A DNA stretch of 28,896 nucleotides, taken from contig JAXLQJ010000003.1 in NCBI GenBank assembly GCA_046331705.1, positions 186,001 through 214,896 on the forward strand, given 5' to 3'. Positions 8,355 to 15,208 of the stretch are shown one piece after another. The notes under the pieces were generated by a model. It was not told the origin of the DNA. It saw only the letters and a program-made list of their open reading frames with translations, and ran no database searches. Position 1 is the stretch's first letter. The number at the start of each line of letters is the position of its first letter. Position numbers and translations under genes: made by a program. The DNA is from a bacterium. GTDB taxonomy: Bacteria > JADJOY01.

Positions 8355-9269
8355 TCACGCCGCCGAGGAGAGGCCGCGCCGCGCGCTGCTCGTGAGCGTG
8401 GGCACCAGCGCGCGGGCCACGACCTCCAGCACCTCGGTGTCGGGGCGGACGAACAGCACGTCCGCCCGGCTCACCGCGTCCGCGTAGAGAACGCCCACCA
8501 CCCGCGCGCCCTCGAGGATCGGCACCGCGAGGACGGATCCGCTCGCCGACGACTCCTCGTCACCGCTGCCCACCAGCACCGAGACGCCGCCGGTGGCCGA
8601 GAGGCGGATCGCGTCCCAGCACCACTCGGGTTGCGTCTCGCGTGCGCCGCACTCGTCCGCGCTGGCCGTGGCGTCGGTCTCGAGCGCCCCGCTCGCACCC
8701 ACGCGCACCACCATCGTTCGATCGGCGCCCAGCAGCCCGAGGACTCCGAGCAGCGCCTGCTTGAACACCAGGCTGCGATGGCGTCCCGAGCGGATGGCGT
8801 CCTTGAGCGACGCCGCGAGCCGCGTGACGCGCATGGCGCGACGATCGATCTCCGCGTCCAGGTCCACGACGTTGCCGCCGCCGGCCGCGCCCGCTCCGCG
8901 CGCCGACGGAATCGTCGACAACCGGACCTCGTTCCGCACGTTCTTGCCCGCCAGCACCGCGTCGCGCGCACCGCGCTCGTCCGGCACGACCTCGAGCACC
9001 GTGCCGCCCACGCGGATCTGCTCGCCGACCGCGAGCACGTGCTCCTCGAGGCCGAGCAGCGCGGTGCCCACGAAGGTGCCGTTGTGGCTCTTGAGATCGG
9101 TGATCACGTGACTGGATCCGTTCCAGCGGATCAGCGCGTGACGGCGCGACACCTCGCCGTCCACCACTTGGATCGCGTTCTGGGGATCGCGCCCGAGCGT
9201 CAGCACGCGGGTGCCGAGGCGATAGGTCGTCCCGGCCTGCGCCCCTTGTCGAACCAACAAGCTCAGCAT
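8355..9269 (-). CDS. FHA domain + GAF-like domain protein with no output domain
   Basis: Start MLSLLVRQG at 9269 after GAGGAGG, overlapping the kinase stop. FHA motifs LGRDP, VSRRHA, DLKSHNGTFV; GAF-like SVLAVPI..VVGVLYAD..F...DTEVL. Confidence 0.85.
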   Translation of the reverse strand: MLSLLVRQGAQAGTTYRLGTRVLTLGRDPQNAIQVVDGEVSRRHALIRWNGSSHVITDLKSHNGTFVGTALLGLEEHVLAVGEQIRVGGTVLEVVPDERGARDAVLAGKNVRNEVRLSTIPSARGAGAAGGGNVVDLDAEIDRRAMRVTRLAASLKDAIRSGRHRSLVFKQALLGVLGLLGADRTMVVRVGASGALETDATASADECGARETQPEWCWDAIRLSATGGVSVLVGSGDEESSASGSVLAVPILEGARVVGVLYADAVSRADVLFVRPDTEVLEVVARALVPTLTSSARRGLSSAA

Positions 9270-11233
9270 TCCGGTTTCCTCCTCAAGTCCGCGGTGGACG
9301 GTTCCTCGGGCAACATCTGGGCGAGGTGCCATTTGCGCAGCAAGAGCTCGACGTCGCGGCGGTCGAGCTCGTCGCGCAGGATGCCCACCCAGGCCGCCGC
9401 CGCGACGATGATCGCGAGGTTGGCGAAGAGCAGCACCGTGAGCGCGGGGCCGCGCGTGAAGCTCAGCGCTTGGGGCATGATCTGGATCACGCCGTCGCGA
9501 AACGCGTAGCTCGGCGGCAGGATGCCGAGCGCTTCGAGGAGCACCGGCGCCACGATGCCGATCCCGGTGCCGATGACGACGAACGCCACCCGCCGGCGGC
9601 GGGACTCCGACATGGCGAACGACAGCATGTTCACCGCCACCGCCGTGGGCACCAGCACCAACGGCCCGAAGCCCCGGCTCGCGGTCGCGAGGCTGAGCGA
9701 GGTGACCACCAGCATCCCGTACTGGCGCGCCGGCGAGATGACCTTCTGCTTGCTCGACAGGAACGCGTAACCGCTGGTCGCGACCGTCGTGAGCATGAAG
9801 AACGCGAGCAGCCAGCCGCTGCGCACGCCCATCCACAGACACGCGGGAATGCACACCACCCAGCTCAGGTAGCAAAGCGAGCCGAGCTGGAAGGCGCGTC
9901 GCAACAGCTCGTTGGCGCCCTTCTCGAACTCGGCCTTCACCTGCGGTGGCACGTGGCGCGGCTTCTCGCCGAGCAGCCGCACCATCACGCGAAAGGCGCG
10001 CGGGTCCTCGGGGTCGAGCGCCAGCGCGCGACCGATCTCCTTCATGGCGCGGGCGCGTTCGGCGAGCGCCGACTCGTCGGCGCGCTCCAGGGCTCGATCG
10101 ACCGCAGCGTCGGCCTCCGCCAGATGGCGCGCCGCCAGCGAAGCGCGCAGCTCCAGATCGCGCTCGCCGTCGAGATGGCGCTGCAGCGCTTGGTGAAGCT
10201 CGTGCGCGGTGCCGAAGCGGTCCGCGGGATCGTAGGCGAGCGCCTGGACGCAGATCGCGTCCAGCTCGGGTGCGATGTCGTGGTCCGGCGCGCGCAGCGA
10301 GGGGCGCGGATCGGGAGCGTCGATGGTTGCCGCGGCCCGCTGCGACGGCGTCTCGCCGCCGACGTACGGGACCCCCGCCAGCACCTCGTAGAGCACCGCC
10401 CCCAGGCTCCACACGTCGGAACGCACGCTCACGCGCGCGGCGGCACCCGCGATCTGCTCGGGGGCTGCGTAACCCGGCGTTCCGATCTGCTGCGACGAGC
10501 GCAGCGAGGCGAGCGGGTCGGCGGTCGCGGCGTCCCGCGCGTGACCGGTCTCGTCGCTCGCCTCGCGCTCCGCGGCGGTCGCGCCGCTCAGCACCGGGAA
10601 CCAGGTGTCCACGGCGATGCCCCAGTCGAGGATGTAGACCTCGCCGAAGTCGCCGAGCATCAGGTTGCTGGGCTTCAAGTCGCGGTGGATCACGCCCAGC
10701 ACGTGGGCGTAGTCGACGGCGAGCGTGGCGCGGGCGAGCGCATCCACGAGACGGCGCCGCGGATAAGCCTTTCGCACCGCCTCGTCCCCCGCGTGGATGC
10801 GCTCGAGGATCTCGTAGAGCGTGATGCCGCGCACCTTCTTCATCGTGAAGAAGGTGCGGCCGTCCGGCGTCCGCCCGATGTCGTAGACCGGCACGATCGA
10901 GGGATGCTCGAGGCGCGCCTGCAGGCGAAGCTCGTGCTCGAACTGGCGCCGCGCCGCCATCCCTGCCACCAGATCGGAGCGCAGCGTCTTGAGCGCCACC
11001 TCGCGGCCGAGCAGCTCGTCGTGCACCGCGCGGACCTCGCCCATCCCCCCCACGCCGAGGAGCGCCAGCTCGCGATAGCGATCGCCGGCAGCGCCCGCCT
11101 CGGGCTCGCCGACGGATGCGACGTCGCGCTCGGGGAGCGGGGTGCGAGTGCGGCTCGGCTTGGTGGCGCTGGGCAGGCGAGCGCCGTCTGCGGATCCTTC
11201 GTACCGTGACTCGGGTGGCAGCGCTCGCTCCAT
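9263..11233 (-). CDS. Hanks-type Ser/Thr protein kinase with C-terminal multi-pass membrane domain
   Basis: LGVGGMGEV, VALK, HPSIVPVYD, IHRDLKPSN, DWG (for DFG), GTPGYAAPEQ, DVWSLG; about 5-6 hydrophobic segments at the C-terminus. Confidence 0.93.
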   Translation of the reverse strand: MERALPPESRYEGSADGARLPSATKPSRTRTPLPERDVASVGEPEAGAAGDRYRELALLGVGGMGEVRAVHDELLGREVALKTLRSDLVAGMAARRQFEHELRLQARLEHPSIVPVYDIGRTPDGRTFFTMKKVRGITLYEILERIHAGDEAVRKAYPRRRLVDALARATLAVDYAHVLGVIHRDLKPSNLMLGDFGEVYILDWGIAVDTWFPVLSGATAAEREASDETGHARDAATADPLASLRSSQQIGTPGYAAPEQIAGAAARVSVRSDVWSLGAVLYEVLAGVPYVGGETPSQRAAATIDAPDPRPSLRAPDHDIAPELDAICVQALAYDPADRFGTAHELHQALQRHLDGERDLELRASLAARHLAEADAAVDRALERADESALAERARAMKEIGRALALDPEDPRAFRVMVRLLGEKPRHVPPQVKAEFEKGANELLRRAFQLGSLCYLSWVVCIPACLWMGVRSGWLLAFFMLTTVATSGYAFLSSKQKVISPARQYGMLVVTSLSLATASRGFGPLVLVPTAVAVNMLSFAMSESRRRRVAFVVIGTGIGIVAPVLLEALGILPPSYAFRDGVIQIMPQALSFTRGPALTVLLFANLAIIVAAAAWVGILRDELDRRDVELLLRKWHLAQMLPEEPSTADLRRKPEC

Positions 11234-11304
11234 CGCTTCCCGGCACCGCGGATCGGGGCGACTTGGGCGTCGCCGCTCGCTCGCTCGGTGGCGTGGTCGC
11301 CCCG

Positions 11305-11320
11305 TGCAAGCGAAGTGCCG
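11305..11320 (-). promoter_or_regulatory. Putative sigma54 (-24/-12) promoter for the kinase/FHA operon
   Basis: Minus strand reads CGGCAC-TTCGC-TTGCA, i.e. GG-N10-GC with one mismatch to TGGCAC-N5-TTGCW, about 70 nt upstream of the kinase ATG. Confidence 0.65.
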
Positions 11321-11570
11321 CGGCCCTCCAGTCGCAAGCCCCCGAAGTCACGCGGATCTCGTCCGCGACCCCCTCGATCGGGTGTCAACAATTCCGAGAT
11401 CCGTCGCGCCGCTGACCGAGCCAGCGGCTCGCTCGCCGCTCTCGAACGCGCAGCCTGCGCGCTGCGGGGTGCGAGATCCGCGTGCAGAATCCGCACGCCT
11501 CGGCAACGTGCTCTCGCGCCGCGACGACGACGAATCCCTGGGGCGACGCTGCGCGCACGGCACGCCATCC

Positions 11571-11600
11571 TTGACGATCGCGCGCCGGTGTCACTACGTT
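11571..11600 (+). promoter_or_regulatory. Putative sigma70 promoter for the yceD-rpmF-plsX operon
   Basis: TTGACG(11571-11576)-N18-TACGTT(11595-11600), 53 nt before the yceD ATG. Confidence 0.45.
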
Positions 11601-11653
11601 TGATCGCTTTTTTCGCTGGCGCTGCGCATGCATCGCCGGCGGGTCTTGGCGCC

Positions 11654-12205
11654 ATGCGCGTTCGCATCGACGACCTGCCGCCGGAGGGGCGTAGCTTCTC
11701 GATCGAGGTTCCGATCGCGGAGCTCGATCGCGCCGTTCAGCCCGATCGTGACCCGGGACTTGCCTGGAACGCACCGGCTCAGGCCGAGATCGCGCTGCAC
11801 AAGGCCGGTCGATCGCTGCGCATCCACGGCGACGCGCGGTTCTCGTTCACGGAGCCCTGCGCCCGTTGCCTGGTGGAGGTCGAGCGCTCGACCCGCAGCA
11901 CCATCGACCTGACCAAGCTGCTCGGCGCCGCACCCGACCAGCCGCGAACCCACGAGCTTCGCGAAGACGAGATCGACGAGGACTACCTCGATGCACCGGA
12001 GATCGATCTCGACGAGGTGGTCCTCGAACAGATCGTGCTCGACCTGCCGCAACGCGTGCTCTGCTCCGACTCGTGTCGGGGCCTCTGCCCGAGCTGCGGC
12101 GTGAATCTGAATCTCGCCGCGTGCTCGTGCCAGCCGAGTCACGGCGATCCCCGCTTCGCGGTGCTCGCCAAGCTCTTCCCTGGCGAGCCTCCCGCCGAAA
12201 GCTGA
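11654..12205 (+). CDS. yceD: YceD/DUF177 family protein (large ribosomal subunit accumulation)
   Basis: MRVRIDDL start; PCARCL, IDLDEVVLEQIVLDLP..LCSDSCRGLCPSCGVNLN..CSC...DPRFAVL; directly upstream of rpmF. Confidence 0.92.
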   Translation: MRVRIDDLPPEGRSFSIEVPIAELDRAVQPDRDPGLAWNAPAQAEIALHKAGRSLRIHGDARFSFTEPCARCLVEVERSTRSTIDLTKLLGAAPDQPRTHELREDEIDEDYLDAPEIDLDEVVLEQIVLDLPQRVLCSDSCRGLCPSCGVNLNLAACSCQPSHGDPRFAVLAKLFPGEPPAES

Positions 12206-12247: not shown

Positions 12248-12433
12248 ATGGCCGTACCCAAGAAGAAGACCTCACGCATGAAGCGCGGCATGCGCCGCGC
12301 GCACAAGCACGCCACGGCTCCCACCGTGGTCCATTGCTCGCGCTGCGGAGAGCCGCGTCTCCCGCACCACGCCTGCCCGAGCTGCGGGTTCTACCGGCAG
12401 GGCGTCGAAGTTCCCGTCGCCAAGGGCGAATGA
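12248..12433 (+). CDS. rpmF: 50S ribosomal protein L32 (Zn-ribbon C+ form)
   Basis: [19 protein letters not shown]...[26 protein letters not shown]. Confidence 0.98.
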
Positions 12434-12581: not shown

Positions 12582-14639
12582 ATGAAGATCGTCGTCGACG
12601 CGATGGGCGGCGACCACGCCCCGGGCGTGGTCGTCGACGGCGCGATCGCGGCGGTGCGCGAGCTCGGCGTCGAGGTCCTGCTCACGGGACCCGGCGAGAT
12701 CGTGCAGCGCGAGCTCGCGAGCCGCGGCGCCGAGAAGCTCATCGAGGTGCGGCACGCCTCCGAGATCGTCGGCATGGACGAGCACCCCGCGGCCGCCGTG
12801 CGCCGCAAGCGGGACTCCTCGATTCGAGTCGGCCTCGAGCTGGTCGCCACGGGCGGCGCCGATGCCTTCGTGAGCGCCGGCAACACCGGCGCGGTCATGG
12901 CCACCGCCACCTTGGTGCTGAAGCGAACCCCCGGCGTGGAGCGCCCCGGAATCCTGACGCTCTTCCCCACCATCACGGGCGAGCCCGCGCTGCTCATCGA
13001 CGCCGGCGCGAACGTGGACTGCAAGGCCGCGCACCTCGCGCATTTCGGCGTGATGGGCTCGGTCTACGCGCAGGCGATCCTGGGGCGCCCCTCGCCCACC
13101 GTCGGCGTGCTGTCGAACGGTGAAGAGGAAGGCAAGGGCAACGAGCTCACGCGCGAGGCGGATCAGCTGTTGCGCGGAACCTCGTTGCGCTACGTGGGTT
13201 ACGTCGAGGGCCGCGACCTCTTCAACGGCCGCGTCGACGTGGTCGTGTGCGACGGGTTCGTCGGCAACGTCGCGCTCAAGGCCAGCGAGGGCGTCGCGAG
13301 CGCCATCCGGACGCTGCTCGAACGCGGCTTTCGCGCCAGCCTGCGCGGCAAGCTCGCCTACCTGCTCGCGCGCCCGGTGCTGCGGGACATGAAGAAGGCG
13401 TTCGACCACCACGAGTATGGCGGCGCGCCGCTGCTCGGCGTGCAGGGCGTATGCATCATCGCCCACGGCAGCGCCACCGCGTACGCGATCCGCAACGCCA
13501 TCCGCCAGGCGCAGAGCCAGCGCCGCGAGGACGTCACCACCCGGATCGAGCGCGCGCTCGGCGAGGTGCACATCCTCCCGGATCTCGACAAGCGATCGAG
13601 TGGTGACCGGGTCGTGTTCTTGAAGGAGCTCGCCAAGAAGATGCGCATCCCGCGACGCGGCGCCGCGTCGACCGAGGCGCAGTCGCCGATTCGCGCCGCC
13701 TTCGTCTGCCCGGGACAGGGTGCCGAGTTCGTGGGCATGGGCGCCGAGCTCGCGACCCGCCACGCCCTGGTGCGCGAGACCATCCGCGAAGCCAGCGAAG
13801 CCGCGGGAATCGACCTGGCCGCGCTGATGGTGAACGGTCCGATCGAGCGGCTCAGGCTCACCGAGCACTCCCAGCCCGCGATCGTCGCGCTCTCCGTGGC
13901 GGTCGCGCGGCTCCTCCAGGCGGAGCTGGCGCTCAAGCCCGCGGTGGTCCTCGGGCACAGCGTCGGCGAGTACACGGCGCTGGTCCTGGCCGGATCACTC
14001 GGCTTCGCGGACACCATCCGGCTCTTGCGCGAGCGCGGCAAGCTCATGCACGAAGCCTCGCCGCCCGGGCGCGGCTCGATGGCGGTCGTTTCCGGGCTTC
14101 ACCGAGCGTCGCTGGCGAAGATCGTCCAGGACGCGGCCCAGGGCGCGGTCCTCGAGATCACCGACGAGCAAGGGCCGGAGCAGTTCGTGATCTCCGGCGA
14201 CGCTCGCGCCGTCGACCGAGCCATCGACGCGGCCACCTCCGCCGGGGTGAAGCGCGCGACGCTGCTGCCGGTGACGGCGCCGTTCCACTCGAGCCTGATG
14301 ACCCCCGCCGCCGAGCGATTCGCAACCGCGCTCGCCGCTCTCGCGATCCGGGAGCCCGAGATCACGCTGCTCTCGAGCGTCACCGGCGGCCGCCTCGCCT
14401 CGATCGACGAGATCCGGACGGCGTTGCTGGCTCAGGTGACCGGCCCGGTGCGCTGGTTCGGTGCGGTGCGGCAGCTGGTGGACGCCGCTCCCGAGCTGGT
14501 GGTGGAGGTCGGCCCGGGGTCGTCCTTGACAGGAGCGTTGCGCCGGATCGAACCTCGCTTGCGGGTCGCAGCGGTGGACGATTTGGAGGGCCTCAAGGCG
14601 CTTCGCGACGCGACACAGCGATTGTTGACACCCCGATGA
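12582..14639 (+). CDS. plsX-fabD: Fusion of phosphate acyltransferase PlsX and malonyl-CoA:ACP transacylase FabD
   Basis: N-half: MKIVVDAMGGDHAP, SAGNTGA, DAGANVD, SNGEEEGKGN, CDGFVGNVALK, GGAPLLGV..IAHGS. C-half: FVCPGQG, SQPA, GHSVGEY, RG.LM, APFHSSLM, PVRW, EVGPG. One uninterrupted 685-aa frame. Confidence 0.93.
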   Translation: MKIVVDAMGGDHAPGVVVDGAIAAVRELGVEVLLTGPGEIVQRELASRGAEKLIEVRHASEIVGMDEHPAAAVRRKRDSSIRVGLELVATGGADAFVSAGNTGAVMATATLVLKRTPGVERPGILTLFPTITGEPALLIDAGANVDCKAAHLAHFGVMGSVYAQAILGRPSPTVGVLSNGEEEGKGNELTREADQLLRGTSLRYVGYVEGRDLFNGRVDVVVCDGFVGNVALKASEGVASAIRTLLERGFRASLRGKLAYLLARPVLRDMKKAFDHHEYGGAPLLGVQGVCIIAHGSATAYAIRNAIRQAQSQRREDVTTRIERALGEVHILPDLDKRSSGDRVVFLKELAKKMRIPRRGAASTEAQSPIRAAFVCPGQGAEFVGMGAELATRHALVRETIREASEAAGIDLAALMVNGPIERLRLTEHSQPAIVALSVAVARLLQAELALKPAVVLGHSVGEYTALVLAGSLGFADTIRLLRERGKLMHEASPPGRGSMAVVSGLHRASLAKIVQDAAQGAVLEITDEQGPEQFVISGDARAVDRAIDAATSAGVKRATLLPVTAPFHSSLMTPAAERFATALAALAIREPEITLLSSVTGGRLASIDEIRTALLAQVTGPVRWFGAVRQLVDAAPELVVEVGPGSSLTGALRRIEPRLRVAAVDDLEGLKALRDATQRLLTPR

Positions 14640-14652
14640 GAATCGGTATGCT
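14625..14652 (+). promoter_or_regulatory. Putative internal sigma70 promoter for acpP
   Basis: TTGACA(14625-14630)-N16-TATGCT(14647-14652), overlapping the plsX-fabD stop; the spacer contains CCGAT-N4-ATCGG. Confidence 0.6.
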
Positions 14653-14856
14653 TGCGCGAAGCTCGTGGCCCCGGCCCTCGTTTTCCCCGGAAAACACCCT
14701 CTATTTCGCAGAATTCCGGCATTTTCGTGAGCGTCGGAGCGCACCATCCGGGGCCCGCTACGCGCGTCGTTCGCAGGATCGCTCGATCGCAAGAGTGCGG
14801 CACGGAGCTCACTCGGCGATCGCCCCAACGGACATGACACAAGGGAGAGTCAGCAG

Positions 14857-15096
14857 ATGACACCAGACGAGATCATGGCGAAGGTCAAGGAGATCATCGT
14901 CGAGCAGCTCGGCGTGAACGAGGACGAAGTGGTCGCCGAAGCCTCGCTGCTCGAGGATCTGGGCGCGGACAGCCTCGACATCGTCGAGCTGGTCATGGCT
15001 TTCGAGGAAGAGTTCGACATGGAGATCTCGGACGAGGAAGCCGAGAAGATCCACACCGTCGGCGAAGCCGTGAAGTACATCCAAGACCACCTCTGA
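14857..15096 (+). CDS. acpP: Acyl carrier protein
   Basis: [12 protein letters not shown]...[32 protein letters not shown]; phosphopantetheine Ser in DSL; SD AAGGGAG. Confidence 0.98.
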
Positions 15097-15181
15097 GCCT
15101 CCACTCGATCGAAAGACGCGCGCCACCCCCAGAGCCCTCCTCGCCCAGCACCCTTCCCGCGACGTCCGCGACGACGAGATG

Positions 15182-15208
15182 CCCCTCCTCCGGAGGGGTT
15201 TCGTGTTT
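15182..15208 (+). terminator. Putative intrinsic terminator downstream of acpP
   Basis: CCCCTCC-tcc-GGAGGGG stem followed by TTTCGTGTTT. Confidence 0.5.

Follow-up and report, generated by a model that had tools for sequence, protein, structure and literature searches.

A PlsX-FabD fusion in a single reading frame

This study concerns a gene in which plsX and fabD, which encode phosphate acyltransferase and malonyl-CoA:acyl carrier protein (ACP) transacylase, respectively, are joined in one uninterrupted reading frame. The gene lies in a stretch of 28,896 nucleotides, here called the window, from a bacterium of the GTDB lineage JADJOY01 (assembly GCA_046331705.1, contig JAXLQJ010000003.1, positions 186,001 to 214,896 of the forward strand). 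The fused gene, its parts, and the neighboring features are listed in Table 1. An earlier note on this DNA, made from the sequence without database searches, had described a single polypeptide combining a complete PlsX with a complete FabD, and this description holds: both enzymes are complete, no stop interrupts the 685 codons, and the gene had been placed at the correct coordinates. The string quoted there for a linker of roughly 40 amino acids is also correct and corresponds to residues 333 to 369 of the 41-residue linker.

Table 1. Coordinates of the fused gene, its parts, and neighboring features in the window
Feature	Position	Strand	Basis or remark
plsX::fabD fused gene	12582..14639	+	ATG start, 685 codons, TGA stop; uninterrupted open reading frame
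PlsX half (phosphate acyltransferase), residues 1-330	12582..13571	+	TIGR00182, 6A1K alignment, pLDDT, dN/dS
Linker, residues 331-371 (41 residues), variable flanks and conserved core	13572..13694	+	no family match (Pfam, NCBIfam)
Linker core FLKELAKKMRIPRR, residues 346-359	13617..13658	+	invariant in 5/5 covering genomes; aligned by MAFFT to the standalone PlsX tail motif
FabD half (malonyl-CoA:ACP transacylase), residues 372-685	13695..14636	+	TIGR00128, 1MLA alignment, pLDDT, dN/dS
yceD (DUF177)	11288..12205	+	Pfam YceD, 95.6 bits, frame residues 180-296; true start probably inside the frame
rpmF (ribosomal protein L32), usual upstream neighbor of plsX	12248..12433	+	Pfam Ribosomal_L32p, 85.5 bits
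Sigma-70-like promoter match overlapping the fusion 3' end, upstream of acpP	14625..14652	+	TTGACA-16-TATGCT, 10/12; consensus match only
acpP	14857..15096	+	Pfam PP-binding; TIGR00517, 112 bits (cutoff, 70.45)
Terminator-like hairpin 3' of acpP	15181..15199	+	8-pair stem, then T-run; consensus match only

Both halves of the protein are recognized by their families nearly from end to end. The Pfam domain FA_synthesis (PF02504) covers residues 1 to 320 (373.1 bits; profile positions 1 to 323 of 324) and Acyl_transf_1 (PF00698) covers residues 374 to 655 (123.7 bits). Among the NCBIfam equivalog models, plsX TIGR00182 matches residues 1 to 329 with 369.7 bits against a cutoff of 243.4 (model positions 1 to 330 of 337), and fabD TIGR00128 matches residues 372 to 658 with 267.7 bits against a cutoff of 260.9. 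Residues 1 to 328 align end to end with the PlsX of Bacillus subtilis (6A1K; 259 bits), for which the structure 1VI1 was also matched, and residues 372 to 671 align without a gap with chain residues 4 to 303 of Escherichia coli FabD (PDB 1MLA; 231 bits). Residues Q379, S460, R485, H569, and Q618 are identical to 1MLA positions 11, 92, 117, 201, and 250. We take positions 92 and 201 to be the Ser-His dyad (in the motifs GHSxGE and xxFH) and position 117 to be the Arg for the malonyl carboxylate, which presumably selects dicarboxylic extender units, and we count the Gln of the PGQG motif among the signature residues. The retention of catalytic signatures reported in the earlier note (the FabD GHS, the Arg of RERG, and the His of APFH) is borne out by S460, R485, and H569, which match their 1MLA positions. 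An AlphaFold2 model built from a 102-row alignment has a mean predicted local distance difference test score (pLDDT) of 93.8, with the FabD half above 90 and the PlsX half mostly above 90.

Both halves are under purifying selection. Pairwise Nei-Gojobori estimates of the ratio of nonsynonymous to synonymous divergence (dN/dS) range from 0.02 to 0.09 in the PlsX half, from 0.09 to 0.31 in the FabD half, and from 0.11 to 0.51 in the linker; at a G+C content of close to 90% in third codon positions, saturation or bias of dS is probable, and these ratios are rough but clearly below 1.

The junction in related genomes and public sequencing runs

The fusion is genuine and inherited. For practical purposes it can be dismissed that a lost stop or an indel, confined to this assembly, merged two genes that are in fact separate, even though some fused database entries do look faulty (P0008 and P0037 appear to run out of frame in their C-terminal parts, and P0007 lacks part of FabD). 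What decides against such an artefact is the presence of the same frame in four species genomes, the gap-free contigs from runs of three studies, and the conservation of the linker core at the protein level. The GTDB phylum, class, and order of the window consist of the same six species genomes, which form one family and two genera. The earlier note had proposed a comparison with related genomes, and in these the 685-codon frame is whole and free of stops in the window's own genome (G000) and in three others, at 91% (G001), 90% (G002), and 80% (G003) identity. The contig of G005, from the second genus, covers residues 230 to 685 at 71% identity and spans the junction, with the N-terminal part found on a separate contig; the contig DNA of G004 stops at residue 331 of the fusion.

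The junction was also checked against contigs assembled from the public runs of three separate studies. One contig (X1 record 4) spans positions 13251 to 15015 without gaps, and another (X6 record 25) spans 13251 to 13759, likewise without gaps and with a single substitution at 13671 (A>G, T364A). Two further contigs (X3 records 19 and 20) span 13259 to 13652 and 13625 to 14864 with no gaps in either. No indel between 13540 and 13700 is listed in any of the junction-crossing contigs from these studies. One of the runs behind X1, X3, and X6 is possibly the sample from which the window's own assembly was made, and the independent assemblies of the related species are stronger evidence on the junction than the run contigs. 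Runs containing the stretch come from 12 studies and are labelled as activated sludge, sludge, or anaerobic digester metagenomes.

Rarity of the architecture

The PlsX-FabD architecture is rare. In a word-indexed search of 5.8 billion clusters, both Pfam domains occur in 10 of the 120 matches listed (P0001 to P0008, P0011, and P0037); these 10 clusters hold 1 to 5 sequences each, and, on our reading of their sequences, P0007, P0008, and P0037 look truncated or out of frame. An exhaustive phmmer search covered 1.84 billion representatives at 50% identity, a clustering that may hide fusions behind unfused representatives, and among its best 150 matches only two extend over both halves in one stretch: P0001, which belongs to this lineage, and P0121 (662 amino acids, 40% identity). 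The possibility that the architecture is widespread was rejected on these counts, and many Acidobacteriota loci that match residues 3 to 672 turned out to be two adjacent genes. The ESM Atlas search returned no two-domain cluster, only FabD clusters with a score of 0.81, a lead-level result that says little.

Gene order was surveyed in a census with one genome per species (185,579 species), the best 80 loci of which were classed by motifs. Only two of these loci are fused (G003 and G005, both from the window's phylum). A separate fabD directly follows plsX in 30 loci (12 of them in the same frame), a fabH-sized gap separates the two genes in 23, the spacing is different in 6, fabD is missing from the locus in 17, and 2 remained unclassed by motifs. 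The premise of the earlier note, that plsX and fabD normally stand apart with fabH between them, is thus true of part of the bacteria, as the 23 loci with a fabH-sized gap indicate, but it fails as a norm, since direct adjacency is found in 30 of the 80. It named no characterized example, and none was found in the literature searched, where listings and abstracts yielded operon names and unrelated work only.

Three unrelated genomes contain PlsX or FabD inside open frames of 674 to 777 amino acids (G029:C36:39204-40175, G031:C8:18748-19749, and G040:C5:129315-130235). They may represent further fusions, with FabH or FabG for instance, or may be open by chance.

Origin of the fusion

Direct adjacency of plsX and fabD is widespread, and the loss of one stop codon would therefore be enough to produce a fusion, with no special loss of fabH needed. 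In one unrelated genome of low G+C content (G015), for instance, plsX is followed by 6 nucleotides and then fabD, with one TAG between them, and a fapR-plsX-fabD-fabG operon is reported for Bacillota in the abstract of PMC5028935. The earlier note had supposed that fabH was lost or moved. It does lie outside the locus, the sole fabH above its cutoff being found on contig C41, but no special loss is required. The likely origin of the fusion is an rpmF-plsX-fabD-acpP arrangement, with plsX and fabD already adjacent, in which plsX lost its stop.

Phylogenies of the PlsX domain (62 rows) and of FabD were built with the quick method of IQ-TREE, with Shimodaira-Hasegawa-like approximate likelihood ratio test support only. 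P0004 was placed on the PlsX tree alone and was left out of the FabD tree for its GHG motif. On the PlsX tree, the window's phylum and P0004 form one fused clade with a support of 100. The fused sequences P0006, P0005, P0008, P0121, and P0011/P0037 fall outside that clade, and the label "fused" needs 6 changes on the tree, at least 5 of which are forced by starred branches. P0005 differs very little from an Acidobacteriota locus in which the two genes are separate, and both trees place P0006 within one and the same group of unfused loci. P0011, P0037, P0121, and the second PlsX of the window's genome (described below) sit on long branches, and their exact places are unsure. A single origin for all fusions, which was also considered, is contradicted by the PlsX tree. 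Fusions have thus arisen repeatedly, but in the present sampling the window's phylum is the only lineage throughout which one has become fixed.

The linker core and the tail motif of standalone PlsX

The flanks of the linker vary freely among the five covering genomes, and inside the 14-residue core the codons vary synonymously. As the core is invariant as protein while synonymous changes occur within it, the constraint acts on the peptide. A nucleotide-level cause of the conservation was considered and is unsupported, since synonymous sites vary.

Many standalone PlsX proteins with long tails carry a related motif, which has a hydrophobic residue, W or F, two variable positions, a hydrophobic residue, and K or R (for example, IWQRIK, LWKQIK, and FWSHVK) and which was sought 45 to 60 residues past GGAPLLG, a spacing that the linker core shares. 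Long-tailed PlsX with this motif is a grouping made in this analysis and corresponds to no curated family. The motif was present in 87 of 107 PlsX proteins with a tail of at least 20 residues from the cluster search, in which a length filter favors long proteins. Among 80 PlsX-only phmmer representatives, which carry no such length bias, 25 are long-tailed and 6 have the motif. In an unguided MAFFT alignment, FLKELAKKMRIPRR falls in the same columns as the tail motifs and as LWTQLTRRLRKSRK of P0004 and IWHQIKSKIETIG of P0006, with FLKELAKKM placed under IWQRIKSKI. The Trp of the motif is Leu in the window's phylum and is retained in its sister P0004 (LWTQL). The invariant, basic linker core descends from a C-terminal tail motif of standalone PlsX, and the linker is thus no random spacer.

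The tailed PlsX proteins come from Nitrospinota, Binatota, genomes labelled "Deltaproteobacteria," and other sources, and a polar low-complexity tail follows their motif. Three long PlsX proteins of about 510 to 534 amino acids (P0127, P0022, and P0042) repeat words resembling W-W-x-L-K further along the tail.

According to a passage of PMC6702220, the membrane-binding element of B. subtilis PlsX is an internal peptide, residues 250 to 262. The stretch aligned to it is present in the window's protein. No mention of the tail motif was found in the literature searched, at the level of listings and passages. Most likely the core would provide PlsX with a further contact, either to the membrane, which is the first guess, or to a partner protein.

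Paralogs and the rest of the pathway

Profile searches of the genome show that the fused enzyme has paralogs of both of its halves. A standalone fabD on contig C86 has canonical motifs and scores 285.4 bits on TIGR00128, against 270.5 bits for the fused half in the same genome search. This standalone gene is intact in G000, G001, G004, and G005 and was not found in G002. In its counterpart in G003 (L124, G003:C3:144300-147300), the frame changes near residue 206, identity being 75% before and after that point, which reflects either a recent frameshift or an assembly indel. A second plsX on contig C21 (G000:C21:54211-55209; L030:7197-8354) scores 305.2 bits, against 371.9 bits for the fused plsX. 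It is kept in five of the six genomes at 38 to 41% identity to the fused PlsX, adjoins genes for an M20 peptidase and an alpha/beta hydrolase, and encodes a protein with altered signature motifs (GAGSTGA, NGTEPTKG, and CEGFLGN) on an end branch of 2.13. Given these changed motifs and the very long branch, the fused PlsX is the canonical copy. With a second, canonical FabD and a divergent second PlsX in the genome, the fusion is less likely to be the sole point of entry to and exit from the pathway.

fabH, the standalone fabD, and the second plsX each lie amid unrelated genes. The genome has one plsY (163.1 bits; cutoff, 137.2), no plsB above its cutoff in the profile search, and one gene above the TIGR00517 cutoff for acyl carrier protein, namely, the acpP downstream of the fusion, other matches being below it.

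What the fused gene may encode

We consider it probable that the gene is an inherited fusion, made by loss of the plsX stop, that encodes a bifunctional PlsX-FabD enzyme. Several observations weigh against this. The fused FabD half clears TIGR00128 by 7 bits only, and a canonical standalone FabD outscores it on that model. Within the fused clade, the ratio of FabD divergence to PlsX divergence (1 minus identity in each case) is 1.5 to 4.2, compared with a median of 1.23 (5 to 95% range, 0.98 to 1.83; maximum, 2.86) across 138 comparably diverged pairs of unfused loci. The FabD half of G005 (L021/P0003) has PGLG for PGQG, as well as TPLHS where others have APFHS, and the sister protein P0004 (687 amino acids, 55% identity), a single metagenomic sequence and the nearest fused relative from outside the phylum, has GHGVGE, with Gly for the nucleophile Ser. 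The RNA evidence amounts to one 198-base contig from an RNA run (13806 to 14003), possibly DNA carry-over; stretches that RNA contigs leave uncovered carry no information. The AlphaFold2 model has a predicted template modeling score of 0.65 and thus gives no confident mutual placement of the two halves; its pLDDT is below 50 at residues 336 to 363, and a helix is drawn at 337 to 353 at low confidence. The hydrophobic moment of the core, a measure of the amphipathic helix on which a membrane contact would presumably rest, is 0.58 to 0.67 and is not above that of shuffled linkers, 362 of 500 shuffles reaching the linker maximum; in P0004, P0014, and P0124 the motif is the hydrophobic-moment maximum, a value reached by 13 to 15 of 500 shuffles.

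An alternative reading is that malonyl transfer in this cell has passed to the standalone FabD and that the fused half, under relaxed or altered constraint, is partly redundant or has taken another role, for example as an ACP-docking module handing acyl-ACP to PlsX or as a transferase of shifted specificity. The standalone enzyme, present in canonical form in at least four of the six genomes, the faster divergence of the fused half, its stem of 1.31 on the FabD tree, the replacements of Gln by Leu in PGQG of G005 and of Ser by Gly in GHS of P0004, and the narrow pass on TIGR00128 all point this way. However, all five residues checked are kept in the window's protein and in G001 to G003, the dN/dS of the FabD half indicates clear purifying selection, and the stem of the standalone FabD is equally long (1.29), so that neither copy looks undisturbed; P0004, being one sequence, could carry an error. 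On balance we regard such a change of role as unlikely. A lower probability still attaches to an internal start at Met354 (ATG at 13641), from which a free FabD would be made besides or instead of the fused product, leaving the fusion minor at the protein level. Met354 is kept in five of five genomes, and the Shine-Dalgarno-like word AAGGAG (13623 to 13628) lies 12 nucleotides before this in-frame ATG, inside the conserved linker core. Yet G002 has AAAGAG at that site, AAG and GAG are expected codons at 70% G+C so that the word may be incidental, and the linkers of P0004 and P0006 have no Met. The invariance of the 14 residues around Met354 while codons vary points to a function of the peptide, and since the PlsX part has no stop, the long product would be made whenever the first start is used; we therefore judge this improbable. 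The earlier note had also raised a shunt from acyl-CoA through acyl-ACP to acyl-phosphate, in which the FabD-like half would charge ACP with long-chain acyl groups taken from acyl-CoA, for PlsX to pass on. The juxtaposition of the two domains, and nothing else, speaks for it, whereas the FabD half passes the malonyltransferase equivalog cutoff of TIGR00128 and keeps both Arg485 (1MLA 117) and the APFH motif; this route is disfavored and very improbable.

For the bifunctional PlsX-FabD enzyme, the following scheme can be proposed. By homology to B. subtilis PlsX, the PlsX half would dimerize and sit on the membrane, where it would convert acyl-ACP and phosphate to acyl-phosphate for PlsY and release holo-ACP. 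The FabD half would hang from each PlsX subunit on a tether of about 40 residues and would transfer malonyl from malonyl-CoA to holo-ACP via Ser460 and His569, with Arg485 holding the carboxylate. The fusion would in this way set a 1:1 stoichiometry and bring the formation of malonyl-ACP close to where the pathway exits at the membrane, and the linker core could contribute an additional contact. Direct recycling of the released holo-ACP to FabD, which the earlier note had proposed, would be a conceivable consequence.

The surrounding locus

The genes around the fusion keep their order in the relatives. The position of yceD upstream of the fusion is the same in G002 and G003, rpmF is kept upstream in G001, G002, and G003, and the order yceD-rpmF-fusion-acpP-rpiB-glyA(-nrdR) is retained as far as contigs extend. 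acpP starts 217 nucleotides past the fusion and is 99 to 100% identical in relatives. One promoter-like match was found, against 0.1 expected in shuffles, and together with the terminator-like hairpin it suggests that acpP could be transcribed on its own. Genes for Ser/Thr protein kinases are frequent; one lies at 9263 to 11233 on the reverse strand, just upstream of yceD, and others, which carry a fused PilZ or receiver domain, are encoded close to the standalone fabD and the second plsX (loci L029 and L030).

Comparison with known systems and implications

The PlsX half resembles the standalone PlsX of B. subtilis (6A1K/1VI1) in its full-length alignment, its match to TIGR00182, the rpmF gene upstream, and the presence of plsY in the genome. 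It differs in continuing at its C terminus into the 41-residue linker and an entire FabD, and the B. subtilis protein (334 amino acids) is without the tail motif to which the linker core belongs. The FabD half, similarly, is like E. coli FabD (1MLA/2G1H) in its gapless alignment, its five identical positions, and its passing of TIGR00128, but it sits behind PlsX, evolves faster than the FabD of unfused pairs, and coexists with a standalone copy. Gene order without an intervening fabH is shared with separate, adjacent plsX-fabD pairs (the Bacillota operon and many Acidobacteriota, Rokubacteria/Methylomirabilota, and "Deltaproteobacteria" metagenome-assembled genomes), in which a stop codon, and often a change of frame, lies between the genes; of the 32 adjacent or fused loci among the best 80, the two that are fused both belong to the window's phylum. 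The metagenome fusions P0004, P0005, P0006, P0011, and P0121 have both Pfam domains in the same order, and P0004 and P0006 have the tail motif in their linkers. Only P0004 shares a common origin with the window's fusion; the others arose separately, each cluster holds 1 to 3 sequences, and no characterization of any of them turned up in the searches made. P0006 was named "PlsX/malonyl CoA-acyl carrier protein transacylase" by the automatic annotation of its source. Malonyl/acetyl transferase domains of type I fatty acid synthases and polyketide synthases (PKS), the latter with frames in this genome as well, are also Acyl_transf_1 domains joined covalently to lipid-synthesis domains, but they match the window's FabD half far more weakly (about 30 to 37% identity), and their partners are ketosynthase, dehydratase, enoylreductase, ketoreductase, and ACP domains, never PlsX among those seen.

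Stop-loss fusion of adjacent operon genes is a common event, and PlsX and FabD are textbook enzymes. The fusion of enzymes that are separate elsewhere is, at the same time, a classic hint of functional coupling. Here, the two steps brought together are the loading of ACP by FabD and its unloading into phospholipid synthesis by PlsX. Its significance is tempered by the paralogs that both enzymes have in this genome, and any channeling would be hypothetical.

As a speculative extension that we think is unlikely to hold in full, the basic peptide of the linker and of the PlsX tails might be an undescribed second targeting element, for the membrane or for a partner. In the window's phylum it would anchor a PlsX2-FabD2 assembly at the membrane, in which the loading and unloading of ACP would share one site and a local pool of holo-ACP, a minimal metabolon of type II fatty acid synthesis and phospholipid synthesis fixed by fusion.

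Selection has maintained the fusion throughout an entire uncultured phylum, albeit a small one. The fusion offers a natural construct for asking whether a FabD placed beside a membrane-bound PlsX alters flux and whether the handover of ACP is local. The tail motif, found on a sizeable subset of PlsX proteins, suggests that PlsX has another surface for interactions besides the internal amphipathic peptide of B. subtilis, and it may prove more widely useful than the fusion itself.

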